Below are positions 2 to 49,028 of a DNA stretch of 64,000 nt, piece by piece; within the stretch, counting starts at the first letter, position 1, and every line of letters starts with the position of its first letter. The position numbers and the translations under genes are program-made. The DNA comes from Candidatus Aminicenantes bacterium (GTDB lineage: Bacteria; Acidobacteriota; Aminicenantia; Aminicenantales; Aminicenantaceae), in contig CP070750.1 of assembly GCA_020348385.1 (NCBI GenBank), forward strand, positions 1,829,244 through 1,893,243, given 5' to 3'. A model generated the notes under the pieces. That model made no database searches and had not been told where the DNA came from. It worked only from the letters and a program-made list of their open reading frames with translations.

Positions 2-661
2 GGGACGTTCATTGTGGGCAGTTTTCTCCCTTCTCTCCTGTATGGAGTTGCGCTTGGGAATGTAATCATAGGAATTCCTCTCGATGCCAACATGGATTTT
101 GGCGGAAATTTTTTCACGCTTCTCCGTCCTTTTCCGCTCTTGCTCGGGCTTTTCGGTTTAGCCGCCATCCTGCTTCAGGGAGCCACCTATGCCGCGATGA
201 AAACAGAAGGAGAAATTCAAGTAAGAGCAAGGAAAATTGCCCAAAAATTGTGGATCAAATATGCCATCCTTTTGGTTATATCTCTAGGTATATCGATCGC
301 CATCATTCCGGAAGCGTCCCAGAAATGGTTGGCCTGGATATTCACAGCCATAGTTATGGTTTGCCTTCTTCTTATCAGAAACGCACTTTTCAAAGGGAAC
401 GATGGTCAAGCTTTCCTATTCTCCTCTATTTCCTTTGGCGGACTATGGGGCATCGCAGGCGCTGTTCATTTTCCCAATCTCGTGAAAGCCAGTAACAATC
501 CCACATTAAGCCTGACAATACATAACTCATCCTCCTCCGAACTCACTCTAAAAGTGATGTTGATCATAGCGATTATCGGGATGCCCATCGTCATCGGCTA
601 CACGATTTATCTCTTTAAAGTATTCAAAGGTAAGGTAAAAACAGAAGATAAATCTTATTGA
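2..661 (+). CDS. cydB: cytochrome bd-type quinol oxidase subunit II, C-terminal part (5' end outside window)
   Basis: The frame is open from the window edge. The polytopic membrane sequence (GNVIIGIPLD...GGNFFTLLRPFPLL...GATYAAMKTEGE) matches the conserved C-terminal half of CydB. Confidence 0.75.
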   Translation, partial: GTFIVGSFLPSLLYGVALGNVIIGIPLDANMDFGGNFFTLLRPFPLLLGLFGLAAILLQGATYAAMKTEGEIQVRARKIAQKLWIKYAILLVISLGISIAIIPEASQKWLAWIFTAIVMVCLLLIRNALFKGNDGQAFLFSSISFGGLWGIAGAVHFPNLVKASNNPTLSLTIHNSSSSELTLKVMLIIAIIGMPIVIGYTIYLFKVFKGKVKTEDKSY

Positions 662-6388: not shown

Positions 6389-9300
6389 ATGAAAAGACTA
6401 AATATCTCATTGTATTGTGTTTTTCTTATCTTTGTCAGCAACGCTATCGCTGTGGCTGCAACGCGACTTCTGCATGAACCGGATATCCAAGCTGACAAAA
6501 TTGTTTTTGTCAAAGCTGGGGACTTATGGACCGTGAGCGACAAAGGAGGAGAAGCGAAGAGACTCACCGTGCACCAAGGAATCGAGGCCTCGCCTAAGTT
6601 TTCCCCTGATGGAAAATGGATAGCGTTTTCTGGAGAGTATGATGGCAACAGGGATGTTTTTATCATCCCATCAAATGGAGGGGAGCCAAAAAGGCTCACC
6701 TACCATCCTTATCCTGATACAGTTCTCGGCTGGATTCCTGATGGGACAAGGATTCTTTTTAAGTCATCGCGAAGCAGTTACAGCGGCTTCAACCGTCTCT
6801 TCACAATCAGTACGGAGGGAGGATTTCCCGAGGAACTGCCTATTCCCATGGTTGAATATGCTGATTACTCTCCTGAAGGAAGCCGCCTTGCTTATAATCC
6901 AATAAGGCATTTTCAAAAGTGGAGACGGTACCGAGGCGGATCCACACCGGCAGTGTGGCTGCTCAATCTCTCCGATTTCTCCTACGAAGAAATACCCCAT
7001 GAAAACGCCAGTGACATTTCTCCTGTGTGGATGGGAAACACGGTATATTTTCTTTCCGACAGAGATAGAACTCTGGACATATATGCTTATGATGTATCCG
7101 GGAAAGTGCTTGAACATCTAGTGAAGAACGGAGATTTCGACATAGAAAACTTATCTGGTGACGGAAAACGATTGGTGTATGAAAGCAATGGGGACTTGTA
7201 TGTTTACGATCCCGCTGTGGGCAATCCACAAAAGCTGCGTATAACAGTTCCCGGGGATCAACTATTCGTAAGGAAACACCACAAAAATGTCTCGAAGGAA
7301 ATAATGAATTATGATCTCTCTCCGACAGGAGCACGGGCAGTCTTTGAAGCACACGGGGAGGTATTAACTGTTCCAGCAAAAAAGGGTAACATCCGGAACT
7401 TGACGAGGTCCCCGGGCGTTATGGATAGAGATCCAGCATGGTCGCCGAATGGGAAATATATATCTTACTTTTCAGATAAAGGCGGAGAATATGCTCTTTA
7501 TATCATAGACCAGAAGGGTATGGAGCCAGCAAAGAAAATAGAATTCAAAAAACCTTCCTTTTATTACAGCCCAACTTGGTCACCGGACAGTAAAAAATTG
7601 GTTTTCACAGATAAGCACATGAATATCTGGTATGTTGATATCGAAAAAAAGAATCCTGTGAAAGTCGATACGGATCTCTTTTCCCATCCATTCCGCACAC
7701 TGGACCCTGTGTGGTCCCCAGATAGCAACTGGATAGCATATGTACGGAAACTCGATAATTACTTCCGTACAGTGTTTGTCTATTCACTGGACGAAAATAA
7801 ATCTTACCAGATTACCGATGGAATGAGTGATGCTCTCTATCCGGTCTTCGATCCAGAGGGCAAATATCTGTACTTCACGGCAAGCACAAATGCTGGACAA
7901 TCCACCGGCTGGCTTGACCTCACCGCCTTTGATAGAAATATCAACATGCATATTTACCTCGTCGTATTGCGGAAAGATCTGCCTTCACCCCTTGCCCCTG
8001 AAAGTGATGAGGAAAAGCCTGAAGAAGAACAAAAAAAAGACCCTCCTAAAAAAGAGGAAAAAGAATCCGAAAAAAAGGATCCTGAAAAGAAAAAGGATGA
8101 ATTCAGAATCGACCTTGAAAACATTGATCAACGCATAATCGCCCTGCCTGTACCGCCAAAGGTCTATTCTCATTTGAGAGCGATCAAAGGAAAATTCTTC
8201 TTCTTGGAATCATCAACGACAGCATTTTTCGGCCCTCCCCAGGGTACAATCATGTTGTTTGACTTTGAATCAAGAAAATCAACCACATATTTGACTAATG
8301 TGACAACATTCAATGTTTCGGCTGACGGGAAAAAACTGCTGTACCTTTCCGGAGACAACTGGGGAATCATTGACACCTCAAATAAGCCAAAACCAGGAGA
8401 TGGAAAACTTAATCTGACCACTATGGATATACAAATAAACCCTAGGGCGGAGTGGAAGCAGATGCTTATCGAAGCATGGCGGATCAACAGAGATTTCTTC
8501 TACGATCCTGGTATGCACGGTGTAGACTGGGAGGCCATCCGTAACCAATACACGGCTTTCCTGCCATATGTTGCCCACAGAAGTGATCTTAATTTTCTGA
8601 TCACAGAAATGATCAGCGAGTTATGCGTCGGGCATGCTTATGCAGGTGGAGGCAACTACCCGGATGTAGAGAGAGTACTTGGCGGACTTCTTGGAGCAGA
8701 TTATGAAATTGAAAACGGACGTTACCGCATTAAGAAAATTTATAGCGGATTGAATTGGAACCCAAACCTTCGCGCGCCGCTCACCGAACCAGGTGTGGAT
8801 ATCTCAGAGGGAGACTTTATAATCAAGGTTAACGGCAAACCGTTGCACGCCCCAACAAATATATTCTCGCTTTTCGAAAAAACAACGGAAAAACAAGTGA
8901 CACTGACTGTCAATTCTTCCCCTGAAGAAAAGGGAAGCAGAACGGCAACTGTCGTGCCGATATGGAACGAATACAGTCTGAGAAACCGGGCTTGGGTTGA
9001 AGGTAATAGAAGGCGGGTCGAAGAATTATCCGGAGGAAGGATCGGGTATGTATACTTGCCGGATACAGGCGGGGGAGGTTATACGTACTTTAACCGGTAT
9101 TTTTTCTCCCAACTGGATAAAGATGGACTCGTTATTGATGAGCGGTTTAATGGTGGTGGATTTGTAGCTGATTATATTATCGATTACCTGGATCGCCCGC
9201 TCTTAAGCTACTGGGCAACCCGCGATGGGAAACCTTTTGCCACTCCGTTTGCCTCGGTATTAGGCCCGAAAGCGATGATCATCAATGAATACGCAGGTTC

Positions 9301-9662: not shown

Positions 9663-11630
9663 TCATAGTTTCAGGATCAATCTCATCACCAAACTGATAA
9701 CAACAGCAACCCCTGTATTCAAAGCAATCGAGAGCAAAGCGATCTTTCTTCCGACTTCTCTCCAGATAATGGCAACGGTGGAGAGGCAGGGGATAAAAAA
9801 GCTTATGAATACCACAAATATGATCATTTGCTGGTAAGTTATGACATTCATCAAATCCTGGTAGTTCACACCGAGCGCCTGGAGCATCATAACCAGGGAA
9901 AGCTCTTTTCGTAAAAAACCAAAAACGAGAGTGACTCCCAATTCTTCGGGCAATCCAAGCGCTTTTCCAACCAAAGGGGAAAGGACAAGGTTGACATATT
10001 TATCTAGCTGAAAATATTGCATAAGGGCCAAAACGACACTTCCTGCAATCAGAATTGGCCAGGCAAATTTGACGAAGGCTTTTAGCTGAACAAAAGTCTT
10101 TCTGGCCATGTTTTTCACAGAGGGCAGTCGGAGGGTAGGGATTTCCAGGATCAATCCAGGCGAGGGCTGTTTATAAAAGAAACTGAGGATGCGTCCCAAC
10201 ACACCTAATAAAAAAATGTTGAAAACATAAAATCCAAGAGCCCATAAAGGTCCCAGATAAAAAGCGACAAGAGCCAAGATGATTGTGGTGCGTGCGGAGC
10301 AAGGGACAAAAGGTATGAGAAGGGTCGTGATAATCCTATCCCTGCGGGATCCCAATATTCTCGTCGATACGACAGCCGGAACGTTGCAACCAAACCCCAA
10401 GATGAAAGGTGAGACCGAATTCCCGTGAAGACCGATACGGTGCATGAAAGTGTCCATTAAAAAACTAGCTCGAGCCAGGTATCCAATGTCTTCAAGCAAA
10501 GACATCAAGAAAAGAAGGGGAATAAAATAGGGCAAAACGATCGCAATCCCTCCACCGATTCCCTGTATCAGGCCTTCGGCCAAATAAAACAGCAGGCTGC
10601 TTCCCAATTGCTCGGCGAGAAAACTCCTAAGGCCGTTCAACGGCCCCAGAAGAAGTTCTTCGAGAGGATTCCCCACTTTAAAGATAATGAAGAAAAAGGC
10701 GAGGAACACCCCAAGCAAGATTACATAACCCAGAAGAGGATGCATGATGATATCATCCACCCTCTTCGGCCAGTCGATTTTTTTTCTTCTTGTGACTCGG
10801 CTGCTCTCTTCAAAAATTTTTAAAGCAAGATGGTGCCTTTCTGCTGCAATGACTTCATAGGCAGGAGCATTATGTCGCGCTTCCAGTTCCTTGCGGATTT
10901 CTTCGAGGCTCTTCATCAGGGGGGGATTGATCTCCTTGAGCATTTTGTTAAATACGAGTCTTTCTGTCTCGATCATTTTGATAGCAGTAAATCTTTTATT
11001 TGACACAACGGGAAAATCGGGAGGGATCAGCTCTTCCAGTTCCACTATCTTATCTTCCACATCTTTGGACAACTCAATCAGTGCCAAAGTCCTTTTTTCG
11101 CTGAGCGTGGTTAAAACTGCGTCTAAAAGTTCTTTAATACCGCGACCATGAGTCGCGATCGTGGGGACCACAGGAACACCAAGGATTTCTTCCAATTTTT
11201 CAATATCGATCTCGATTCCCTTTTTTTCCGCCAGATCCATCATGTTCAATACCACAACCAAAGGATATCCCAACTCAATGAGCTCCAGCGTCATTTCCAA
11301 ACTTCGCCCCAAGATGGAAGCATCTATTACATTGACGACCAAATCAGGTCGCTCGACAAATAAATGTGTGAGGGCTACTTTTTCAGCTTCACCGGATGGA
11401 TTCAGGGAATAAGTGCCCGGAAGATCTATGATATTCAACAGATTCCCTTCGTGGTTGACCTTGCTGTGGGTGTGTTCAACCGTGGTTCCGGCAAAATTGG
11501 ACGTTTCTGCTTTAAAACCTGCAATCGCATTGAAGAGAGTGCTTTTGCCAGAGTTTGGCTGACCAATAAAAATGATGTCAGGAAAATTATTCTGTTTCGC
11601 CAACGATTTCAACCATAATTTTTTGGGCAA
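9663..11630 (-). CDS. feoB: ferrous iron transporter B
   Basis: It has an N-terminal G domain (GQPNSGKSTLFN, DLPG) followed by a polytopic permease. The start given is TTG and overlaps the feoA end, so the exact start is uncertain. Confidence 0.95.
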   Translation of the reverse strand: MPKKLWLKSLAKQNNFPDIIFIGQPNSGKSTLFNAIAGFKAETSNFAGTTVEHTHSKVNHEGNLLNIIDLPGTYSLNPSGEAEKVALTHLFVERPDLVVNVIDASILGRSLEMTLELIELGYPLVVVLNMMDLAEKKGIEIDIEKLEEILGVPVVPTIATHGRGIKELLDAVLTTLSEKRTLALIELSKDVEDKIVELEELIPPDFPVVSNKRFTAIKMIETERLVFNKMLKEINPPLMKSLEEIRKELEARHNAPAYEVIAAERHHLALKIFEESSRVTRRKKIDWPKRVDDIIMHPLLGYVILLGVFLAFFFIIFKVGNPLEELLLGPLNGLRSFLAEQLGSSLLFYLAEGLIQGIGGGIAIVLPYFIPLLFLMSLLEDIGYLARASFLMDTFMHRIGLHGNSVSPFILGFGCNVPAVVSTRILGSRRDRIITTLLIPFVPCSARTTIILALVAFYLGPLWALGFYVFNIFLLGVLGRILSFFYKQPSPGLILEIPTLRLPSVKNMARKTFVQLKAFVKFAWPILIAGSVVLALMQYFQLDKYVNLVLSPLVGKALGLPEELGVTLVFGFLRKELSLVMMLQALGVNYQDLMNVITYQQMIIFVVFISFFIPCLSTVAIIWREVGRKIALLSIALNTGVAVVISLVMRLILKL

Positions 11631-14668: not shown

Positions 14669-16132
14669 ATGCTGGATGACAAAATTAAAGAAGGACTTAC
14701 TTTTGATGACGTGCTGATTCTCCCTGCCAAGTCCAAAGTTTTGCCTGCAGAAGCGGATGTCTCGACCAAACTCACCCGGAACATCCCTCTCCCTATCCCG
14801 ATCATTAGCTCTGCCATGGATACGGTTACCGATTCAAGAATGGCTATCGCGTTGGCACAAAAAGGAGGCATCGGTATCGTGCACCGGAACATGCCCATCG
14901 AAAAACAAGCGGAAGAAGTGGACAAAGTAAAAAGACATGAGAGTGGAATGATTGTCGATCCTATCACCGTCAGGCCAGAGAACAAAATCTTCGAGGCTAA
15001 AGAAGTGATGAAAAAATACAGGATTTCAGGCCTTCCGATAACGGATAAAAACAACAAACTGGTAGGAATCCTGACCAATCGCGACATCCGGTTCGAAACA
15101 CGGCTCAACTTGCCGATAAGTAAAGTGATGACAAAGGAATTGATCACCGTTCCGTTGGGAACGTCACTTAAGGAAGCGGAAAAACTCTTCCACAAACACA
15201 AGATCGAAAAGCTTTTGATGGTGGACGAAAATTTCAATCTTAAAGGCTTGATCACGTATAAAGATATCCTGAAACGGATCCAGTACCCTAATGCTTGCAA
15301 AGACGATTTTGGCCGATTGAGAGTGGGAGCAGCTGTCGGAGTAAGTGGGGAAACCCTGGAAAGGGCCAAAGCTTTAGTTCAGGCGAAAGCGGATGTGTTG
15401 GTGATCGATACGGCCCATGGCCACTCACAGAAAGTCATGGATACAGTGAAAATGATAAAAAAAGAGCTTCCAGAACAGGACCTCATTGCCGGAAACATCG
15501 GGACAACAGAGGCGGCCAAGGAACTGATCGCACTGGGCGTCGATGCTGTGAAAGTTGGCGTAGGGCCAGGCTCGATCTGCACAACTCGCATTATTTCAGG
15601 AGCGGGCATCCCACAGATCACGGCAATATCTGATGTTTTCAGAGTTACCAGGGAAAAAGATATTCCTCTTATCGCCGATGGCGGGATCAAATACTCAGGA
15701 GATATCACCAAGGCTATCGCAGCAGGGGCCAGCTCTGTCATGTTGGGAAATCTCCTGGCTGGCACCGACGAATCCCCAGGGGAAGTTGTGATATTCCAAG
15801 GGCGTTCATACAAAACTTACAGAGGAATGGGATCGATCGAAGCCATGCGAGAAGGAAGCCGCGACAGGTATTTTCAAGAGACTGCACCGGGTGTGAGCAA
15901 ACTCGTCCCTGAAGGAATTGAGGGAAGAGTTCCGATTAAAGGCAATGCTTTTCACATCATAGAAATGATGGTAGGAGGCCTCAAATCGGGCATGGGGTAT
16001 GCCGGATGTGGAACCATCCCTGACCTCCAGGAAAAAGCCAAATTCATAAAAGTGACGGTATCAGGTATGAAAGAGAGCCATGTTCACGATGTCGTCATCA
16101 CAAAAGAAGCGCCGAACTATTATCTAGAATAG
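14669..16132 (+). CDS. guaB: IMP dehydrogenase
   Basis: It has the TIM barrel plus CBS pair and the catalytic loop [11 protein letters not shown]. Length is 487 aa. Confidence 0.97.
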
Positions 16133-16147
16133 CCTGGATTATTCAGG
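16133..16147. promoter_or_regulatory. 15-bp near-perfect palindrome CCTGGATTATTCAGG (TGAAT-N-ATTCA motif family)
   Basis: It starts immediately after the guaB stop and ends 14 nt before the next ATG. One half-site mismatch. Confidence 0.3.
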
Positions 16148-16161
16148 ATCACGTATTTCAT

Positions 16162-16866
16162 ATGAATACCATAAATATTTTTGCACTCAGTTTGGGAATT
16201 ATACTTGGGATTATTCACTTCTACAGCGAAAAACTAAAACTTCCAGATGGGGCCAACCGCTATCGCGTCATTTCATTTGCTGCGGGGATCTCTATCGCCT
16301 ATTTATTTCTCAACCTCCTTCCCCATACTTATGCCGCAGCCGATCATCTCAAGAATTTTGTTTTTGTATTTCTCCTTCTGGGTTTCGTTCTATTTCATCT
16401 CGCTGAAAAATTCATCTATAAGCATGCAGACCAAAAAAAGCTCGCCAGGGAATTAAAGGAAGTTCATTCCATCTCTTTCTTCTTTTATTATTTTATGATT
16501 GGTATCGTTCTTTATGACAAAGTTCTCACAAGTCAATTGGAGGGGATATTGTTTTTTATCCCGATCGGACTCCACGCTTCTCTGAGCACTGCTTCCTTAT
16601 CTCAAATACATGGGGATATTCGAGAGGGCTTCGGGACAAAAATTCTTCTGTCTCTATCCACAATTTTGGGCGTGATATTCGCCTTGCTCGTATCCGTCCC
16701 GAATATTCTGGACAATATACTCGTGAGCATGATAGCCGGCATACTGCTTTATATCATCGTTAAGGAATTTTTGCCTGAAAAAGAAAAGGGACAACCCATG
16801 TTTTTCTTGTCAGGAATTCTTGTGTTTATCGGATTTTACATATTAATCGAATCTATCCTTATGTAG
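16162..16866 (+). CDS. polytopic membrane protein, divergent ZIP-like divalent-metal permease
   Basis: About 7-8 TM segments. The C-terminal IAGILLYIIVKEFLPEKEK resembles the ZupT/ZIP C-terminal helix. The classical HExxxxGD motif is not evident, so this call is weak. Confidence 0.4.
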   Translation: MNTINIFALSLGIILGIIHFYSEKLKLPDGANRYRVISFAAGISIAYLFLNLLPHTYAAADHLKNFVFVFLLLGFVLFHLAEKFIYKHADQKKLARELKEVHSISFFFYYFMIGIVLYDKVLTSQLEGILFFIPIGLHASLSTASLSQIHGDIREGFGTKILLSLSTILGVIFALLVSVPNILDNILVSMIAGILLYIIVKEFLPEKEKGQPMFFLSGILVFIGFYILIESILM

Positions 16867-16875
16867 GAGAAAGAT

Positions 16876-18642
16876 ATGAGAAAATGGAAATGTTCGGTTT
16901 GCGGTTATGTTTATGACGAAAACAAAGAGGGAGTCCTGTTCGAAGAGTTACCCGCAGATTGGACATGCCCGCAGTGCGGAGCACCAAAATCAGCCTTCAA
17001 GGTCATCGAAGGTGAGGGCACAACTAGAAAGGGGAAAACAAACGTCGCGGAAAAAATCGTGGACCAGCTTGTCGCCTATGGAGTAAAGAGAGTCTACGGA
17101 ATACCAGGAGATTCCAACCTCCCCTTGACCGATGCCATACGGAAGAATGCGAATATCGACCTGGTGCTCACCCGACACGAACAGGCGGCAGCCTTTATGG
17201 CCTCGGCCCATGCCAAACTCACAGGTGAGATCGGAGTATGCATATCCATCGCCGGCCCGGGCGCGACAAATCTGATCACCGGTATCGTGGATGCGGCCAC
17301 GGATAGAGCACCTGTTCTCGCCTTACTCGGGCAAGTGCCGGAGGTTTTTTTGGGCAGCGAATCCCTACAAGAAATCCCGGAGGTGGATATTTTCAAGACA
17401 TTTTGTGTTTACGCCGAACAGCTAAGTGCAGCCGGCCAGGCTCTGAAAATCGTTAATTTAGCAATCAAAAAAGCCTACTCATCTCCAGGCCCTTCGGCTT
17501 TGAGCCTCCCGACAGATGTCTTGGTCGAACCTTTGGATGAGGCTATATGGCCTCCTAAGGCCCATTTTTTCAAACCCGATCTCCGACCGGGAGAAGCGGT
17601 CAAGGATGCGGCAGAACTGATCGCCCAGAGCAAAAGGCCTGTCCTTTTTGCGGGTTGGGGCTCCCGCGATTGCGGACCTGAGCTGCTTGAATTTGCCCGC
17701 CACATCGGAGCTCCCATCGCCACCACGTCTCGGGCTAAAGGAATAGTCCCAGAATCGGACGAACTCGTCCTCGGCGTTTTGGGATCGATCGGGAACCGGT
17801 TTGCTCCCCAAATTGTGGCTCAATCAGATTTGATCATCATTCTAGGAAGCGGTTTCAGACAACGCAATCTTGTTCCAGATATCGATATTATTCAGGTGGA
17901 TATCGATGCGACACGGGTAGGTAAAACATTTCCAGTCAATATCGGAATTGTGGGGGATGCCCACCGAGTCATCGAAATGCTGAACGAAGTTGCGAAACCC
18001 AAAAAGATGGATCCTGAATTTTTAGAATCTATCCGATCTGCCGATAAAAAGTACAAAGATTTGCTCCATCAGGACACACAGAAAACACAAATCCCTATTC
18101 ATCCGGGGGCGGTGATTCAAGCGTTGAAAAAAAAGGCCGCTAACAACGCCATTATTTGTTCGGATGTGGGAGACCATACCTATTGGTTCTATAAACGTTT
18201 TGTCTGTGATCAGCATCAAACCTTTTTATGCGCTAACATGGCAGGAATGGGATTTGGGATACCCGCTGCTGTGGCCTGCCAGTTTGCCCAGCCAGACAGG
18301 CAAGTTATCGCTATAACGGGCGATGGCGGTTTCGGGATGGCGGGGATGGAGTTTATGACAGCTGTGTATAACAAACTTCCGATCACCGCCATCGTGTTTA
18401 ACGACGGCAAATTGAAAAATATAAAAAAAGAGCAAGAAAGCTATGGCTATCCCGAGTACAGGGTGAGTTTTACCAATCCCAACTTAGCTGAAATGGCCAA
18501 TTCTTCAGGAGCTATAGGATTCCGGGTTTCGGATCCTAAGAAGCTCGAATCGGCCTTAACAGAAGCTTTAAGTTCTTCGAAACCCGCGATTGTGGAGGTT
18601 TTGGTCGCCCCTGATATCTATATTAAAGCTGTCCGCCGTTAG
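16876..18642 (+). CDS. rubredoxin domain fused to a pyruvate-oxidase/acetolactate-synthase-family ThDP enzyme
   Basis: Residues 1-48 are a rubredoxin ([10 protein letters not shown]...[10 protein letters not shown]). The rest matches PoxB-like Pyr, central and PP domains ([35 protein letters not shown]..x..FNDG). Confidence 0.85.
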
Positions 18643-18691
18643 GAGCTGGAAGGCATGAAAATGATTTTGTTGTTATTTTTTGCCATATCAG

Positions 18692-18703
18692 GATAATATT
18701 CAT
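18692..18703. promoter_or_regulatory. GATAATATTCAT, GATAAT-type half-palindrome
   Basis: It shares AGGATAATATT with the site at 43851. It lies 80 nt upstream of the DUF2769-like gene. Its TATTCAT can pair with ATGAATA at 18737. Confidence 0.2.
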
Positions 18704-18737
18704 GTTGATGGAATGAAAGATGTTCCAGAATCTTTTA

Positions 18738-18748
18738 TGAATAACTCA
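18738..18748. promoter_or_regulatory. TGAATAACTCA (TGAAT-N-ATTCA motif family) followed by TATAAT at 18750-18755
   Basis: It lies 34 nt upstream of ATG 18783. One mismatch to the palindrome. Confidence 0.3.
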
Positions 18749-18782
18749 ATATAATGGATTAAAAAGAAGAAAGGAGGTAAAC

Positions 18783-19007
18783 ATGGCAAAAGTGCCCGAT
18801 ACACAGGAGACGACCATACAATGTATTTGTGGGGGATGTCCCTCGTATGACGATTGCATGAGAAATAACGACGAAATTTTGTACTGCGCTAGGGAAAAGA
18901 GCACATGCGAAGTTCCGAGGAACGGCTGCCTATGTGGAGCTTGTCCCCTGGCATCGGAATTCGATTTGGATAAATTGTATTATTGTGTCTCCGGTGCGGC
19001 TGAATAA
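18783..19007 (+). CDS. small Cys-rich protein, DUF2769-like
   Basis: 74 aa with 10 Cys. It has two C-x-C-G-x-CP motifs (CICGGCPSY and CLCGACPL). AAAGGAGG SD. Confidence 0.6.
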   Translation: MAKVPDTQETTIQCICGGCPSYDDCMRNNDEILYCAREKSTCEVPRNGCLCGACPLASEFDLDKLYYCVSGAAE

Positions 19008-19025
19008 TCATAGGAGGTATACCTG

Positions 19026-19742
19026 ATGTCGTTTTTTCTGATAAAATCCATTCTAGCCCTGTTTTTGCTGGCTACTGCTGTCAGTGCAGTCATAAGCATG
19101 TTCACCATAATGGGTAAAGCAGAAAAAAAAGCCGATCCTAAAACATTGAGGAAGATTCACAAGATATCTGGTCGTATCTTCCTGCTCTTGCTTCTCCCCC
19201 TCATAATCCTGGGATTGAGGCATTGGGCCAATGTCGGCGACCAGGCCTCTCTCCGGGCTGTGTTCCACGCCGTGTTGGCTCTGGGACTCATCGTCATCTT
19301 CCTGCTCAAGGTGTCCATCGTCAAGTTTTACAAACAATTCCTTCGTTTCGCTCCTGTCCTAGGCATGTTGGTTTTTAGTTTTGCCTTTGTCGTGTTCAGC
19401 ATTTCGGCAGGATATTACGCTGTGAGAACATTGAGCGCTTCGCCGCCCCAACCTGAGGAGCGCCAAATGGATTCTCCTGAAATCGTCGGAAATGCAGACC
19501 AAGGGGCCTCTTTTTACAACACCAATTGTCTCTCCTGCCACCATGCAGATTCAGAAGAAAAAAAACTCGGACCCGGACTCAAAGGCCTCTTCAAAAACGA
19601 AAAATTACCGCACACTGGGCGTCCAGCAACCGTTGAAAACGTCAAGCAACAGCTCATCCGGCCAGCACTGGTTATGCCTTCTTTTACTAAATTAACCGAG
19701 CAGGAAATAGCAGACCTCATCGCTTATCTCAAAATCCTGTAG
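19026..19742 (+). CDS. 4-TM membrane protein with C-terminal mono-haem c-type cytochrome domain
   Basis: It has four hydrophobic helices with conserved His (KIHKISGR, LRHW, FHAV). These are followed by a CLSCHH haem-binding CXXCH motif and a distal Met (LVMPSF). TAGGAGG SD. Confidence 0.7.
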   Translation: MSFFLIKSILALFLLATAVSAVISMFTIMGKAEKKADPKTLRKIHKISGRIFLLLLLPLIILGLRHWANVGDQASLRAVFHAVLALGLIVIFLLKVSIVKFYKQFLRFAPVLGMLVFSFAFVVFSISAGYYAVRTLSASPPQPEERQMDSPEIVGNADQGASFYNTNCLSCHHADSEEKKLGPGLKGLFKNEKLPHTGRPATVENVKQQLIRPALVMPSFTKLTEQEIADLIAYLKIL

Positions 19743-19772
19743 AGCAAATCCCTACTAATTTTATAGAATAAA

Positions 19773-19801
19773 TTGACAGAATGTTCGATTTTACCTAGAA
19801 T
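19773..19801 (+). promoter_or_regulatory. sigma70-type promoter TTGACA-N17-TAGAAT
   Basis: TTGACA at 19773-19778 and TAGAAT at 19796-19801, 25 nt upstream of ATG 19827. The 19773 start in the ORF track is the TTG of the -35 box. Confidence 0.45.
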
Positions 19802-19826
19802 AAGCAAAAATACAGCAGGAAAAAAA

Positions 19827-20249
19827 ATGAAAAAATATTGGCGATGTCATGTTTGCAGCGATGTTCATTACGGCGTTAATCCGCCTGAGTTATGCCCGAC
19901 CTGCAAGGTCTTGAACGCCTTCGTGGAAATTTCTTCGGCGGAAGCGGAAAAAATCTGTGGCATCGCCGAAACCACGATGGACGAGGTCGAATTCTGCGAT
20001 GCCATCGAAAGATTTACCGTAGGGAACAAATTCCAAATCAATCCCGATAAAAATAGGGTAAAAACGCTTTTGGAAGGGATTTTCCAAAACGAAAAAAACT
20101 ACGGGATGAAATACTGCCCATGCCGCTTGACTACGAAAAAGTTCGAAGAAGATCTGAAGCTCGTGTGCCCTTGCAATTTCCGGATTCACGACACCTACAA
20201 AGACAAAGAGGATGGTGAGTGCTGGTGCGGACTTTTTATCAGGAGATAA
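19827..20249 (+). CDS. ferredoxin:thioredoxin reductase catalytic-subunit-like protein with N-terminal rubredoxin-type ribbon
   Basis: The N-terminus has CHVC-x12-CPTC. The C-terminus has INPDKNRVKTLLEGI..YGMKYCPCR..LVCPC..ECWCGLF, which matches the FTR CPC/CPC/CxC cluster and disulfide motifs. AGGA SD lies upstream of ATG 19827. Confidence 0.75.
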   Translation: MKKYWRCHVCSDVHYGVNPPELCPTCKVLNAFVEISSAEAEKICGIAETTMDEVEFCDAIERFTVGNKFQINPDKNRVKTLLEGIFQNEKNYGMKYCPCRLTTKKFEEDLKLVCPCNFRIHDTYKDKEDGECWCGLFIRR

Positions 20250-20253
20250 TCAC

Positions 20254-20532
20254 ATGAATAATTTACTAATGTTTCACGGACGGGAATGCCCCCATTGCAT
20301 CGTCATGATGCCGATTGTTGACAGGCTTGAAAATGAAACAGGCATAAAAATCGAAAGGCTCGAAGTCTGGCATAACGAGAAGAATGCGGATTTGATGAGA
20401 TCTTATAGAGAAATTATCGAACCGAAATGTGGTGGCCAACTGCGAACTCCTACTTTCATGAATACGGAAACGAACGATATTCTTTGTGGAGAAGTCAAAT
20501 ACGAAGAGTTGAAAGATTGGGCCAGTGAATAG
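20254..20532 (+). CDS. small thioredoxin/glutaredoxin-fold protein, CPHC active site
   Basis: 92 aa. FHGRECPHC is followed by the cis-Pro region (LRTPTF). AGGAGA SD. It starts 4 nt after the FTR-like gene. Confidence 0.75.
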   Translation: MNNLLMFHGRECPHCIVMMPIVDRLENETGIKIERLEVWHNEKNADLMRSYREIIEPKCGGQLRTPTFMNTETNDILCGEVKYEELKDWASE

Positions 20533-20533
20533 G

Positions 20534-21928
20534 TTATAGATTCGGCTCTGTCATCTTTTTCGCGTCCAAAATTTTTTGGATTTCTTCCTCTGTCAGCAAA
20601 CCCATTTCTAAGACTATTTCGATAAGCGATTTTCCTTTGGCAAGGGACTGCTTAGCAACCTCTGCGGCTTGAGCATATCCAATGAAGGGAGAAAGAGCGG
20701 TTGCCAGCCCCAGGGTATTATTGGCGTAATACCGGCATCTCTCCACATTCGGTTCGATACCTTTTATGCATCGCGCATTCGCCTGCTTCATTCCATTTGT
20801 CAGGATTTCGATCATAAAGCACAGGTTGAATGCTATCACCGGCATCATCACGTTTAGCTCAAGTTGACCGGCCTGAGCCGCGCCAGTTACTGCAAGATCA
20901 CACCCAATAACCTGGTAACACACCATGTTCATCATCTCGAGCATGGAAGGATTGACCTTTCCCGGCATTATGGATGAACCAGGCGCAACCGCTGGTAGCA
21001 TAATCTCTGCCAATCCTGTTTTTGGTCCAGAGGAGAGCAGGCGAAGATCATTGGCGATGCGATTCATCTCCAGGGCCAGGTTGCGGAGCGCTGCGCTAAC
21101 CTCAGCCATTGGCCGCATGCTCTGCATGGCTTCCCTCAAGTCTTGGGATCCTTTCAACTTAAGCCCTGTCAATTGGCTTAGATTGCTAATCATGTGTTCT
21201 GCAAATCCAGTAGGGGTATTGAGTCCTGTTCCAACGGCTGAACCCCCTATACCTATTTCAAGAAGGGACCGGGCAGCGTGTTCAAGAAAATGTCGACATC
21301 CGGCCATGGTTTTGGAATAGGCTAGGAATTCCTGCCCCAACCGGACTGGAGCTGCATCCTGGAGATGAGTCCTCCCGGATTTCAAAACTCTGTCGAATTC
21401 ATTGGCTTTTAACTGGAAAGTCTTCTCTACATCTTTCAGTACGCCAATCAGGTCTTCAAGTAGAAAAAGAGCAGAAATTTTCATTGCCGTCGGGAAAACA
21501 TCATTTGTGCTCTGTCCCATATTCACATCATCATTCGGGTGGATTGATCGATATTGGCCTCGCTTTCCTCCTAAGATTTCCTCTGCGATGTTAGCCAACA
21601 CCTCATTGCAATTCATGTGGAAGGATGTTCCCGCTCCCATTTGAAACACATCCACCACAAACTGTTCCTGATATCTTCCGTCCAAGATTTCATCGCAAGC
21701 TTTGCCAATAGCATTTGATTTTCTTTTTTCCAATCTACCAAGAGCGTGATTAGACAGGGCAGCTGCTTTTTTTATTAAAACCACAGCTCGCACCATTTCA
21801 GGATGGCTATGGAGACCGCTGATCGGAAAATTGGCCAAGGCTCTGGCCGTCTGGGCACCGTAAAAGGCGATTGCAGGAACATTGACTATCCCCATTGTAT
21901 CTTTTTCCATTCTTTTTGTTTTTGCCAA
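20534..21928 (-). CDS. aspA: aspartate ammonia-lyase (class II fumarase/aspartase family)
   Basis: It has the GSSIMPGKVNP signature. GAGTS (aspartase-like) replaces the fumarase GSGTQ. The track start is TTG; an alternative ATG lies at 21910. Confidence 0.8.
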   Translation of the reverse strand: MAKTKRMEKDTMGIVNVPAIAFYGAQTARALANFPISGLHSHPEMVRAVVLIKKAAALSNHALGRLEKRKSNAIGKACDEILDGRYQEQFVVDVFQMGAGTSFHMNCNEVLANIAEEILGGKRGQYRSIHPNDDVNMGQSTNDVFPTAMKISALFLLEDLIGVLKDVEKTFQLKANEFDRVLKSGRTHLQDAAPVRLGQEFLAYSKTMAGCRHFLEHAARSLLEIGIGGSAVGTGLNTPTGFAEHMISNLSQLTGLKLKGSQDLREAMQSMRPMAEVSAALRNLALEMNRIANDLRLLSSGPKTGLAEIMLPAVAPGSSIMPGKVNPSMLEMMNMVCYQVIGCDLAVTGAAQAGQLELNVMMPVIAFNLCFMIEILTNGMKQANARCIKGIEPNVERCRYYANNTLGLATALSPFIGYAQAAEVAKQSLAKGKSLIEIVLEMGLLTEEEIQKILDAKKMTEPNL

Positions 21929-45659: not shown

Positions 45660-46406
45660 ATGGATTATTGGAACTGGTTGCTTTTATTCGGGGTCGGCTT
45701 GATAGCAGGATTCATCAACGTGAATGCTGGCGGCGGATCGAGCCTCACTTTGCCCACGCTGATATTCATGGGCCTTGACGGCGCCCTGGCTAACGGCACA
45801 AACCGCGTCGCTATTTTTATCCAGAATATCTTTGCCATAGCTTCTTTTAAAAAAAACAAAATGCACCAGTTCCGCACAAGCTCAGAGCTTTCCCTGTTCA
45901 CCCTTCCTGGCGCTGTCCTCGGTGCCATCCTGGCCGCACGGATAAGCAGCGTATTGTTCGAACGCATCTTGGGGGGAGTTTTGATATTTATCGTGATATC
46001 CCTATTCTTTTCACGTTCCTACAAGGAAAGGGATCTCGATCAGAAAGAGCAGAGGAGCTGGTGGATTTATCCCGCCCTTTTGGGAATCGGATTTTACGGT
46101 GGATTTCTCCAAATTGGCGTAGGTTTTTTGTTTATGGCCGCTCTCTACCACCTTCTCCGTGTCGATCTGATAACAGTCAACATGCACAAGGTGTTTATCA
46201 TTTTGATCTACACATTACCTGCATTGCTGATATTCATGTGGACAGGCAATGTGAACTGGAAATACGGGCTCGCCCTTGCTGCGGGGAATGCCTTAGGAGG
46301 TTGGTGGGGCGCTCATGTGGCGGTCAAGGGTGGCGAAAGAGTTATCCGTATCATTCTTGGCGTGGCCATCAGTATCATGGCTCTCAAGCTCTTCGGGCTT
46401 TTTTAG
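45660..46406 (+). CDS. TauE/SafE-family anion exporter
   Basis: FGVGLIAGFINVNAGGGSSLTLP is present, with a repeat of it in the second half (LGIGFYGGFLQIGVG). Confidence 0.85.
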   Translation: MDYWNWLLLFGVGLIAGFINVNAGGGSSLTLPTLIFMGLDGALANGTNRVAIFIQNIFAIASFKKNKMHQFRTSSELSLFTLPGAVLGAILAARISSVLFERILGGVLIFIVISLFFSRSYKERDLDQKEQRSWWIYPALLGIGFYGGFLQIGVGFLFMAALYHLLRVDLITVNMHKVFIILIYTLPALLIFMWTGNVNWKYGLALAAGNALGGWWGAHVAVKGGERVIRIILGVAISIMALKLFGLF

Positions 46407-46505: not shown

Positions 46506-48275
46506 ATGAATAATCCAGTTAGGGAGAGGATAAGCAAATTGATACATGAATACGATGTGGTGATCGTCGGAGCGGGAGGAGCGGGCTTATACGCTGCCTT
46601 GGAGGCTAGCAGGCAAGTAAAAACAGCGGTTATCTCGAAACTCTATCCGATTCGTTCGCACACAGGAGCCGCCCAAGGCGGAATCGGAGCGGCCCTCGGA
46701 AACGTGGAAGAAGATAAGCCGGAATGGCATGCTTTTGACACTGTCAAAGGCGGTGATTATCTCACAGACCAAAAGGCCGCCTGTCTATTAGCCGATGAGG
46801 CTGTCCAAGCTGTGTATGATCTGGAAAACCACGGCCTCCCCTTCAACCGCACTTCTGAAGGAAGAATCGACCAGAGGCGTTTTGGGGGCCATACGCGGAA
46901 CTTTGGGGAAGCCCCTGTCCGCAGGGCTTGTTACGCAGCAGACCGGACTGGCCATATGATCCTGCAAACTCTTTATCAGCAATGCATTAAAAACAAGGTA
47001 TCCTTTTTTGATGAGTTTCATATCATTGATGTTTTATTACAGGGCCACAAATGTGCTGGTCTCGTGGTTATCGAATTGGCCTCCGGTGAGCTTCACGTCT
47101 TCAAAGCCAAAGCAGTATTGTTCGCCACTGGAGGATTTGGCCGCATGTTTGGGATAACTTCGAATGCTCATGCCAATACGGGAGACGGGCCCGCTCTCGT
47201 AGCACGAAGAAATGTCCCTCTGAAGGACATGGAGTTCTTCCAATTCCATCCGACCGGTATTCGAGGGATGGGTATATTGATCACAGAAGGTGTTCGGGGT
47301 GAAGGCGGCATACTGAGAAACAATAAAAACGAGCGTTTTATGGAACGCTATGCTCCCAAACTCTTGGATCTGGCTCCTCGCGACATGATTGCCCGAGCCA
47401 TCATCACAGAAATTCGGGAGGGAAAAGGAATAAAACGGGACACCGCAATAGATGATTATGTGCATCTGGATGCCACTCACTTGGGCCGAGAGGTGATCGA
47501 AGAAAAATTACCGGAGATCGCAGACTTTTCCCGCACCTATTTGGACATCGACCCGGCAGAAAAACCCATACCTGTCCATCCTACTGCTCACTACGCCATG
47601 GGGGGGATTCCCACAGACGTGCACGGTAGAGTTCTTGCCGATGCAGAGGGGAACCTGATCGAAGGCCTGTATGCTGCGGGAGAATGCGCCTGTGTTTCGG
47701 TACATGGAGCAAACCGGCTGGGAACAAACAGTCTTGTGGATTTGATCGTTTTTGGCCGCCGGGCGGGGCTCCATATCGTCGATTTTGTTAAAAAAGTCGC
47801 CTTGTCCCCTCTACCGAGGGACGCCATCGAACCGGCCCAGACTATTGTAAACCGACTTTTCGATGGAAAAAAAGGCCCTCTACCAGAAGAGTTACGACAA
47901 TCCATGCAGGACTTGATGATGAAAAACGTGGGGATTTACCGGAGTGGCAAAGAGATGGCTGATGCCGTGAAAAAACTTGAAGACTTGAAACAGGACTACA
48001 GAGAAGTCAGGATAAAAGATAAAAACAAAAGTTTCAACACTAACCTGCTCGAAATCCTGGAATTGGGAAACCTCCTGGACCTTGCTTATATAACAGCAAC
48101 ATGTGCCCTGAACCGCACCGAAAGCCGCGGCGCGCATGCCCGAGAAGATTATCCGGAAAGGAACGACGACAAATGGCTCAAACACACTCTTGCATGGCTG
48201 AGGGACAAGAAGGTTGAGATCGATTACAGTCCTGTGGATGTGTCTGTGTGGGAACCAAAACCGAGGAAATACTAG
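46506..48275 (+). CDS. sdhA: succinate dehydrogenase/fumarate reductase flavoprotein subunit
   Basis: It has [10 protein letters not shown], the covalent-FAD His in [14 protein letters not shown] and RLGTNSL. Confidence 0.95.
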
Positions 48276-48287
48276 CAAAGGAATGCG

Positions 48288-49028
48288 ATGAAAATATATC
48301 TCCAAATTCAGCGTTTTAATCCCGAAAAAGATAAAGAGCCGGTCTACCGAAAATACGCCGTCGAGGTGGATCCGAAAGACCGTTTGCTGGATGCTCTGAT
48401 GAAAATAAAAAATCGCGAAGATCCCTCATTGGGATTCCGGAAAAGCTGCGCCCATGGTGTGTGCGGCTCGGATGCGATGGTCATTAATGGTAAAGAGCGA
48501 TTGGCGTGTAAAACATTGATCAAAGACGTGGCCAAAAAGGACGGAGCTACCGTCAAGGTGGAACCTCTGCGGAACCTTCCGTTGCAACGAGACCTGATGG
48601 TGAATCAATCTCCATTTTTCCAAAATTATCGTCAGGTGAAACCTTACCAGATCAACCCTGAATCTGTTCGAGAAAAAGAGCGCATCCAGAGTCCTGAAAA
48701 AAGAAAACAATTCGACGATGCCACCAAATGCATCCTTTGCGCTTCCTGTTTCTCAGCATGTCCGGTAAAACAGGAAGTGAACCCAGAATTCTTGGGACCA
48801 GCAGCCGTTATTCAGGCTTCCCGGTTCATCGATGACGACCGGGACAAAGGATTCGAAGAGAGGCTCCCTGAGCTGGATTATCCTGACGGCATATGGCCTT
48901 GCGAAAACCGATTCGAATGCACTCGGGTTTGCCCGAGAAACATCAAGGTGACAAAGCTCATCAACCTCACCAAAAGAAGAATCACAGAGCTCCGAAAAGA
49001 CAAGGAAAAAACAAAACCGCGAATATAA
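48288..49028 (+). CDS. sdhB: succinate dehydrogenase/fumarate reductase iron-sulfur subunit
   Basis: It has 2Fe-2S (CAHGVCGSD...C), 4Fe-4S and 3Fe-4S Cys clusters (CILCASCFSACP, CTRVCP). Confidence 0.95.
   Translation: MKIYLQIQRFNPEKDKEPVYRKYAVEVDPKDRLLDALMKIKNREDPSLGFRKSCAHGVCGSDAMVINGKERLACKTLIKDVAKKDGATVKVEPLRNLPLQRDLMVNQSPFFQNYRQVKPYQINPESVREKERIQSPEKRKQFDDATKCILCASCFSACPVKQEVNPEFLGPAAVIQASRFIDDDRDKGFEERLPELDYPDGIWPCENRFECTRVCPRNIKVTKLINLTKRRITELRKDKEKTKPRI

Follow-up and report, generated by a model that had tools for sequence, protein, structure and literature searches.

A 64,000-nucleotide stretch of Candidatus Aminicenantes DNA (contig CP070750.1; the whole stretch is hereafter called the window) carries a cluster of six same-strand genes whose products include two rubredoxin fusions. 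In the first of these, Rd-POX, a rubredoxin precedes a thiamine diphosphate (ThDP) enzyme related to the pyruvate oxidase PoxB, and in the second, Rd-FTR, it precedes a domain resembling the catalytic subunit of ferredoxin:thioredoxin reductase (FTR). The other four products are a ZIP-family permease, the Cys-rich protein DUF2769a, the membrane cytochrome TMcytc, and a small redoxin of the thioredoxin (Trx) or glutaredoxin (Grx) kind with a CPHC motif. Drawing on the gene and domain identities, their conservation, the separate loss of parts of the cluster, a conserved promoter, and gene pairs that recur elsewhere, the locus is tentatively read, with somewhat less than even confidence, as two redox units placed around a membrane cytochrome hub, which they either have in common or simply border, and not as one linear pathway. 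The original prediction had proposed an obligate, self-contained chain from Rd-POX through rubredoxin centres to the FTR-like protein and on to Trx; this could not be upheld, because the parts are lost independently across 27 loci and show no linkage outside the lineage.

Conservation, separate loss, and recurrent gene pairs

The comparative analysis relied on a metagenome scan anchored on TMcytc, in which the neighbours at 80 loci were tabulated by tblastn; these loci are not phylogenetically independent, and presence or absence was scored at the locus, not genome-wide. The 120 best homologues listed all belong to the same lineage, and distant contexts were reached via a representative search and contig look-ups. 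The ancestral layout is guaB-(zip)-(rdpox)-(duf2769a)-tmcytc-duf2769b-rdftr-trx-(lyase)-panDC, and the entire cluster recurs in the species-representative genomes L001, L002, L004, L005, and L016, so that its conservation across Aminicenantes is borne out. Genomes L001 and L016 are GTDB representative metagenome-assembled genomes titled 'uncultured Eubacteriales bacterium'; they carry the Aminicenantes-type cluster with 74–86% Rd-POX identity, and the label is probably wrong.

The co-occurrence and synteny expected of the two rubredoxin-fusion genes were found only in part. Among the 27 loci evaluable on both sides, 9 retain Rd-POX together with Rd-FTR; however, 12 have Rd-FTR without an intact Rd-POX, one (L082) has Rd-POX only, and 5 have neither. 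Decayed Rd-POX remnants adjoin intact RdFTR-Trx genes in L105 (a fragment at 8040–8195) and in L114 (8066–8275, an internal deletion with the two ends left), and a frameshifted Rd-POX in L096 (7852–9422) is accompanied by the loss of Rd-FTR. The complete Aminicenantes genome CP070825 (L080) reads secA-guaB-tmcytc-duf2769b-rdftr-trx-panDCB, with no Rd-POX at the locus. Outside Aminicenantes, an FTR-like gene was found in 0 of 17 Rd-POX loci; an apparent Rd-FTR beside Rd-POX in L020 was rejected as a rubredoxin::FMN_dh fusion. Similarly, Rd-POX, TMcytc, and DUF2769 are absent from all four contexts of distant proteins in which an N-terminal rubredoxin precedes an FTR catalytic domain (N-Rd::FTRc), and none of the independent contexts examined links either Rd-POX or TMcytc with Rd-FTR. 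Within the lineage, synteny is about equally strong for GuaB, PanDC, and the redox genes, and adjacency there is therefore weak evidence of coupling.

The links that do recur in independent contexts are those of Rd-POX with TMcytc, with DUF2769, and with SdhAB plus an aspartase-like lyase, and that of Rd-FTR with the redoxin. An Rd-POX–TMcytc pair separated by 20 nt is found in an unrelated neighbourhood (L082/L083), and a Coatesbacteria chromosome (L019, 6849–11809) holds a tight operon of a TMcytc-like gene, sdhA, sdhB, and rdpox with 4-nt or overlapping junctions; the earlier suggestion that the membrane cytochrome is a further partner thus looks right, given its pairing with Rd-POX in another context and in another phylum. 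DUF2769 lies directly downstream of Rd-POX in the Bathyarchaeia loci L011 and L018. Moreover, Rd-POX clusters with SdhA and SdhB in five loci (L017–L021) from at least four lineages, among them Bathyarchaeia (L018), Coatesbacteria (L019), and Halobacteriota (L021), with an AspA/FumC-like lyase present in L017, L018, L020, and L021 but not in L019. The redoxin, which follows Rd-FTR after 4 nt in the window, was found in 34 of 44 evaluable loci, and in L164 a 47%-identical N-Rd::FTRc gene is followed, again after 4 nt, by a gene for a 53%-identical redoxin, with no other cluster gene nearby.

The promoter TTGACA-N17-TAGAAT upstream of rdftr is the only 11/12 match in 8 kb. As the total of promoter-like sites equals the shuffle expectation, its reality rests on conservation: in L085 and L092 both hexamers are unchanged while the spacer differs, and the same motif follows the TMcytc stop codon in 14 related loci, after 33–40 nt in most and after ~270–350 nt in L080 and L097. 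Downstream of the motif come duf2769b, rdftr, and trx or, in loci that like the window have lost duf2769b, rdftr-trx directly. The genes for Rd-FTR and the redoxin thus belong to a transcription unit of their own, into which read-through from upstream is possible. The 28 nt located 5' of the -35 box (window 19745–19772; consensus CTAATTCCTACTAATTTTATAGAATAAA) are nearly invariant across three loci and include a second TAGAAT; candidate roles for this segment are those of an UP element, of an alternative -10 box, and of an operator.

Protein families and their relation to known enzymes

The N-terminal rubredoxin of Rd-POX is canonical (CxxCG...CPxCG; Pfam Rubredoxin at residues 3–41, 41 bits), and the TPP_enzyme_N, M, and C domains that follow score 124, 116, and 130 bits. 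The top PDB match and closest solved structure is E. coli PoxB (3EYA, 5e-79), the pyruvate:ubiquinone oxidoreductase or 'pyruvate dehydrogenase [cytochrome]' of entries 3EY9/3EYA, with all three ThDP-enzyme domains matched. Among NCBIfam models the top match is pyruvate oxidase PRK08611, and the curated equivalog cut-offs were missed (PRK08611, 460 against 742 bits; PRK09124, 349 against 792; TIGR02720, 342 against 638). Like PoxB, a peripheral enzyme feeding a membrane acceptor, Rd-POX retains the catalytic Glu (HEQ) and the ThDP motif GDG...N(D/N), seen as GDGGF...FND in the 3EYA alignment. Its TPP_enzyme_M domain is complete by Pfam; such domains do not always bind flavin adenine dinucleotide (FAD). 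In PoxB, the C-terminal ~40 residues constitute a lipid-activated membrane peptide, and this peptide is missing in Rd-POX, because the alignment covers PoxB residues 3–530 of 572 and Rd-POX ends only 8 residues further on. Rd-POX further differs from PoxB in its N-terminal rubredoxin, in an Asn at the F465 position, and in its gene neighbourhood, which contains DUF2769 and a membrane cytochrome c instead of a quinone system. It is likely a PoxB-like enzyme without the membrane tail, for which the fused rubredoxin would serve as the electron outlet.

The Rd-POX fusion is kept at >65% identity within Aminicenantes and at 51–55% identity in Bathyarchaeia, Methanosarcinales, Methanoperedens, and Coatesbacteria. 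It is thus common among uncultured Aminicenantes, a group abundant in sediments, and extends to Bathyarchaeia and to cultured Methanosarcinales such as Methanohalophilus and Methanococcoides. If the rubredoxin is the electron outlet, the fusion would give anaerobes an oxygen- and quinone-independent form of PoxB-type chemistry, possibly coupled with a membrane cytochrome or with the reduction of fumarate. A literature search on rubredoxin and pyruvate oxidase in Aminicenantes or Bathyarchaeota found no paper describing the Rd-POX fusion. In Methanohalophilus sp. RSK (L014, 9965–11779), the homologue is split into two open reading frames (ORFs) of 397 and 202 aa, through a frameshift, a sequencing error, or decay to a pseudogene. 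Other flavoenzymes carry comparable fusions: in L020 (8136–9305), RUBY_RBDX is fused to an FMN-dependent alpha-hydroxyacid dehydrogenase (FMN_dh) directly after the lyase of the Rd-POX-SdhA-SdhB-lyase cluster, and Rd::Glu_synthase-like proteins are also found in L013 and L015. Flavoenzymes with an N-terminal rubredoxin tag seem to turn up repeatedly among these anaerobes.

The rubredoxin part of Rd-FTR is an N-terminal, rubrerythrin-type knuckle pair (C7, C10, C23, and C26; RUBY_RBDX, 29 bits), and the catalytic part (FeThRed_B, 58 bits with a cut-off of 22) contains the presumed [4Fe-4S] cluster and disulfide cysteines in CPC97–99, CPC114–116, and CWC132–134. All of these Cys, along with W133, are invariant in an alignment of 28 sequences, and about ten further 50%-identity clusters combine the N-Rd::FTRc architecture with a CWCGLF motif. 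Against the PDB, Rd-FTR matches 4TPU (6e-16) and 7PWE (4.5e-12), with 7BZK as a weak match (E 0.098); a Foldseek search with its structural model, whose predicted local distance difference test (pLDDT) is 69.5, likewise placed 7PWE and 4TPU on top at marginal E values of 1.5e-3 to 9e-3. By these comparisons, Rd-FTR is assigned to the family of ferredoxin:disulfide reductases (FDR), with permuted domain order and a CWC variant, and calling this half of the module 'undescribed' had been too strong. What is new is the rubredoxin fusion on a PoxB relative, together with the Trp variant and the permuted domain order in the FTR half; what is known is the FDR family.

The described FDR proteins, from Methanosarcina acetivorans (4TPU) and, as a Grx-FDR fusion, from Desulfotalea psychrophila (7PWE), have an FTRc-like domain with the CPC...CPC...CxC pattern also present in Rd-FTR. 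As in FDR, a variable subunit is lacking and an auxiliary redox domain is fused (a rubredoxin in 4TPU), and the adjacent redoxin is an obvious putative substrate, FDR acting on a small Trx/Grx-like protein. In contrast, the rubredoxin is N-terminal in Rd-FTR and C-terminal in 4TPU, and the third motif is an invariant CWC as opposed to the CYC aligned in 4TPU and 7PWE. Also unlike FDR, the redoxin gene lies directly downstream as a conserved pair with Rd-FTR, and the Rd-FTR operon of most relatives additionally has an exported DUF2769 and adjoins a membrane cytochrome gene. The M. acetivorans enzyme is reported to reduce a Trx with ferredoxin as the donor (PMC6262447). A literature search on 7PWE yielded nothing relevant.

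The catalytic domain of plant and cyanobacterial FTR (FTRc plus the variable subunit FTRv) is likewise homologous to that of Rd-FTR (FeThRed_B), and the [4Fe-4S]-plus-disulfide chemistry is presumably common to both. The third motif of plant FTR is CHC; unlike the plant and cyanobacterial enzymes, Rd-FTR has Trp for this active-site His, a fused rubredoxin, and a non-canonical CPHC redoxin where they have a WCGPC thioredoxin. The redoxin displays its CPHC within GRECPHC after a beta-strand-like LLMFHG, together with C59, C78, and a cis-Pro-like TP motif. The thioredoxin fold claimed for this protein is consistent with the GRECPHC and TP motifs, but all hidden Markov model (HMM) matches are sub-threshold (Thioredoxin_9, 19 against 25; TIGR00411, 17.9 against 92.75, E 0.0024; 1NHO, E 0.2). 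The gene pairing suggests that the redoxin is the dedicated partner, and the obvious substrate, of Rd-FTR, and the N-Rd::FTRc/CPHC-redoxin pair would extend the FDR family by a Trp active-site variant.

DUF2769a has 10 Cys, 8 of which are conserved in two CxCxxCP...C repeats, and has no signal peptide (cytoplasmic); it may be a small metal or Fe-S carrier. In 30 of 62 evaluable loci, its gene immediately precedes that of TMcytc. The second paralogue, DUF2769b, whose gene is lost in the window, lies between TMcytc and Rd-FTR in most relatives, and loci carrying it include L080 (~11130–11592), L084, L087, L090, L091, L095, L104, L109, L121, and L138. As its sequence always begins with MKRR(D/E)FF, a twin-arginine translocation (Tat) motif, and mostly has an L(T/S)SC lipobox, DUF2769b is taken to be a Tat-exported, probably cofactor-bearing periplasmic lipoprotein; the operon would thus code for one periplasmic and two cytoplasmic redox proteins beside a membrane cytochrome gene. 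The gene call of DUF2769b in L080 starts too late and misses the twin-arginine signal. Of the earlier statement that the locus encodes neither a ferredoxin nor an FTR variable subunit, the latter part stands, as no FTRv-like gene was found in the locus by ORF list or Pfam, whereas the former may be wrong, DUF2769 being a possible Fe-S carrier. In the literature search, DUF2769 was mentioned only in passing.

TMcytc consists of a DUF6529 domain with four transmembrane (TM) helices (32.1 bits against 23.3) and a C-terminal class-I cytochrome c domain (Cytochrom_C, 44 bits against 21) with the heme motif CLSCH. C168, C171, and H172 of the CXXCH attachment and the distal Met of M217-P218 are invariant, as are H45, G49, R77, H81, and K95, even against the 26%-identical Coatesbacteria (L019) homologue. 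From the four TM helices and the K/R-rich first loop, a periplasmic location is predicted for the cytochrome c domain. The AlphaFold2 model (pLDDT 72.7) is built of four long helices with a small domain at the C-terminus, and its sub-threshold Foldseek matches are unspecific four-helix bundles that include the heme-binding Hyd-1 cytochrome b, STEAP, and NOX5. The literature search found no paper mentioning DUF6529. A related arrangement is found in L082 (3261–5472), 6 kb from the Rd-POX–TMcytc pair of that locus, where the gene for a 442-aa Rd::Glu_synthase-FMN protein is followed after 11 nt by that for a 290-aa DUF6529-like 4-TM protein with two CXXCH motifs.

Divergent TMcytc homologues also occur without a rubredoxin protein (L152 8051–10690; L150; L163; L153 3897–5856; L141; L159). 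One such orphan group adjoins a SoxA/TsdA-like cytochrome c, a GSDH-type dehydrogenase, and DUF2769a, and in the other the gene downstream of the TMcytc homologue encodes a protein of ~390 aa that combines CXXCH with a DUF5777 membrane beta-barrel. These contexts hint at periplasmic or outer-membrane electron transfer and would fit a membrane electron conduit.

Proposed electron routes and competing explanations

The cofactors, the topology, and every electron-transfer step with its direction are what we infer from the gene set. Unit A would comprise zip-rdpox-duf2769a-tmcytc, probably read through from guaB, with Rd-POX acting as a ThDP- (presumably also FAD-) dependent 2-oxoacid dehydrogenase on pyruvate, most likely, or on a related 2-oxoacid. 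Electrons would leave Rd-POX singly via the fused rubredoxin, a built-in one-electron outlet, and would pass to TMcytc, possibly with the help of DUF2769a, and on to the periplasmic cytochrome pool, and/or to SdhAB and fumarate. Unit B, rdftr-trx with its own promoter, would constitute an FDR-type [4Fe-4S] disulfide reductase in which Rd-FTR reduces or oxidises the CPHC redoxin in one-electron steps via its rubredoxin. TMcytc is the likely common docking partner of both rubredoxin domains, and pyruvate-derived electrons could reach Rd-FTR as one of several inputs. The co-transcription of DUF2769b and the adjoining TMcytc gene suggest that unit B exchanges electrons across the membrane, and the linkage of Rd-FTR to both would point to a possible membrane-coupled thiol/disulfide system. 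Testable roles are thereby proposed for two families of unknown function, DUF2769 and DUF6529.

The layout of the locus is analogous to that of the HdrDE, DsrMK(JOP), and TmcABCD complexes, in which a membrane cytochrome is combined with a cytoplasmic, disulfide-reducing [4Fe-4S] subunit. In some complexes of this type, a Tat-exported Fe-S or cytochrome subunit on the periplasmic side and a small, dedicated disulfide protein (DsrC) are also present. The likeness is one of layout only: unlike these systems, the locus shows no sequence homology to them and no CCG/HdrD domain or NarI-type cytochrome b (neither an HdrD/DsrK CCG domain nor a NarI-like cytochrome b was matched by Pfam or NCBIfam on any of the six proteins), it has an FTR-like unit with a rubredoxin, and any complex of its products would be hypothetical. 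A wider proposal, which is regarded as improbable, holds that DUF6529-cytochrome c is a previously unrecognised transmembrane conduit docking enzymes with N-terminal rubredoxins (PoxB-like, Glu-synthase-FMN-like, and FTR-like); the Aminicenantes hub would join 2-oxoacid oxidation, the periplasmic cytochrome pool including the Tat-exported DUF2769, and a cytoplasmic FTR-type thiol switch, and the Coatesbacteria protein would serve as the SdhAB anchor. If true, the DUF6529 hub would represent a minimal, non-homologous counterpart of HdrDE/DsrMKJOP and, in Coatesbacteria, a new type of SdhAB membrane anchor.

Several observations weigh against the two-unit hub. A typical rubredoxin potential of ~0 mV is unfavourable for reducing a Trx disulfide; the potentials usual for rubredoxin and cytochrome c would instead tend to drive the oxidation of thiols. 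PoxB F465, which helps ThDP-to-FAD electron transfer, is replaced by Asn in the 3EYA alignment, and the redox chemistry of Rd-POX may therefore differ. Binding of heme b or a quinone by the TM domain of TMcytc would be conjectural: no significant PDB match to its model was obtained with Foldseek (best E 0.1), and the topology estimate places the two invariant His of TMcytc on opposite membrane faces. Furthermore, the link between TMcytc and Rd-FTR is seen only within Aminicenantes, where GuaB and PanDC are equally syntenic, distant N-Rd::FTRc proteins have no DUF6529 or cytochrome neighbour, and a TMcytc homologue is absent at 16 of the 17 non-Aminicenantes Rd-POX loci.

The units might instead be independent, a reading considered somewhat doubtful, in which Rd-POX, with DUF2769a and TMcytc, is a respiratory or fermentative 2-oxoacid dehydrogenase, RdFTR-Trx serves cytoplasmic thiol maintenance fed by ferredoxin as in Methanosarcina, and the two are neighbours by inheritance in a variable guaB-panDCB region. 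The equal conservation of GuaB/PanDC synteny, the separate losses of Rd-POX and Rd-FTR, the promoter of RdFTR-Trx, and the distant N-Rd::FTRc genes that stand alone or with a redoxin only are all in line with it, as is the reported use of ferredoxin to reduce Trx by the M. acetivorans FDR (PMC6262447). However, the RdFTR operon normally begins with the Tat-exported DUF2769b, which points to the membrane or periplasm and is hard to square with a system confined to the cytoplasm and supplied by ferredoxin; in L110, L129, and L160, moreover, the four genes TMcytc-DUF2769b-RdFTR-Trx remain linked although GuaB or PanD has been displaced. A direct chain, in which electrons pass from a 2-oxoacid to Rd-POX, from rubredoxin to rubredoxin, and then to the FTR-like and Trx-like proteins with no need of ferredoxin or NADPH, is judged very unlikely. 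It is true that the two fusions lie within 3 kb and are the only two proteins with a rubredoxin knuckle pair among the 62 non-overlapping ORFs of the window, that 9 of 27 evaluable loci keep both genes, and that the overall reaction is downhill, pyruvate/acetate plus CO2 being far more negative than Trx; but an intact Rd-POX is absent from 12 of the 21 RdFTR-containing loci, two of which hold decayed remnants, as well as from the locus in the complete genome L080. The separate promoter, the lack of an FTR-like gene in all 17 Rd-POX loci outside the lineage, and the failure to co-occur in the four distant RdFTR contexts also speak against such a chain.

The remaining explanation concerns the acceptor of unit A, with which it is compatible: Rd-POX could work with SdhAB and the aspartase-like lyase in a Stickland-like pyruvate:fumarate oxidoreduction, the fumarate coming from aspartate or malate and TMcytc being the missing SdhAB anchor. 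This is thought unlikely overall. The Rd-POX-SdhA-SdhB clusters in five loci, four of them with the lyase, argue for it, as do the TMcytc homologue that fills the sdhCD position in L019, the lyase gene abutting the window cluster, and the window SdhAB genes 26 kb away without adjacent sdhCD. Nevertheless, no SdhAB lies within 10 kb of TMcytc in ~80 Aminicenantes-type loci, the presence of the lyase does not co-vary with Rd-POX, genes for Sdh anchors may lie at another place in the 4.35-Mb genome, and archaeal loci have SdhAB but no TMcytc.

Locus layout and neighbouring genes

The gene set, the gaps between the six same-strand ORFs (9, 140, 18, 84, and 4 nt), the domain fusions, and the promoter position were all confirmed by the ORF list, Pfam, and a promoter scan, and the HMM searches that had been proposed back the rubredoxin, TPP_enzyme_N/M/C, DUF2769, cytochrome c, FeThRed_B, and Zip assignments.

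Table 1. Genes and the promoter of the cluster, with the SdhAB and lyase genes of the window (positions in the window).
Feature	Position	Strand	Evidence
ZIP-family metal permease, short, 234 aa	16162..16866	+	Pfam Zip 39.9 bits, cut-off 35.1
Rd-POX, 588 aa	16876..18642	+	Pfam Rubredoxin + TPP_enzyme_N/M/C
DUF2769a, 74 aa	18783..19007	+	Pfam DUF2769 61 bits
TMcytc, 238 aa	19026..19742	+	Pfam DUF6529, Cytochrom_C, Cytochrome_CBB3
Sigma-70-type promoter TTGACA-N17-TAGAAT of the RdFTR-Trx unit	19773..19801	+	11/12 match
Rd-FTR, 140 aa	19827..20249	+	Pfam RUBY_RBDX + FeThRed_B
Trx/Grx-like redoxin, 92 aa	20254..20532	+	sub-threshold Trx-family HMM matches
Aspartate ammonia-lyase/fumarase class II lyase, convergent with the redoxin gene	20534..21928	-	NF008909
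SdhA (46506-48275) and SdhB (48288-49028)	46506..49028	+	TIGR01816, NF004616

Longer ORFs starting at TTG 19773 and ATG 20212 were rejected as artefacts, because the homologues begin at MKKYW... (140–144 aa), the 92-aa redoxin is called in L080, and the -10 box ends at 19801. An Rfam scan of 15900–20700 at E<=1 returned a chance miRNA match only, leaving the 140-nt and 84-nt gaps without a riboswitch, and inverted-repeat and terminator scans between the genes found nothing. The flanks are housekeeping genes, with secA and guaB upstream and, downstream, the convergent aspartase-like lyase followed by panD, panC, and panB. The lyase was first read as a fumarase; only the aspartate ammonia-lyase subfamily scores above its cut-off (NF008909, 625 bits against 510). 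SdhA and SdhB of the window score 831 bits against 727 (TIGR01816) and 283 bits against 228 (NF004616), and no sdhC/D-type anchor gene adjoins them, the upstream gene at 45660–46406 encoding a TauE/SafE-family membrane protein; their anchor may be encoded elsewhere or may be TMcytc.

The ZIP permease is an accessory, not a core, component of the cluster: it is intact in few relatives and has decayed to a C-terminal remnant of ~70 aa in many loci, with or without Rd-POX downstream. Such remnants are found in L100, L102, L104, L106, L124, and L125. The gene for cytochrome bd oxidase subunit II (Cyt_bd_oxida_II, 149 bits) is truncated by the edge of the window, which retains its C-terminal part at 14–661 (+); a quinol oxidase and a quinone pool are therefore present in this organism.

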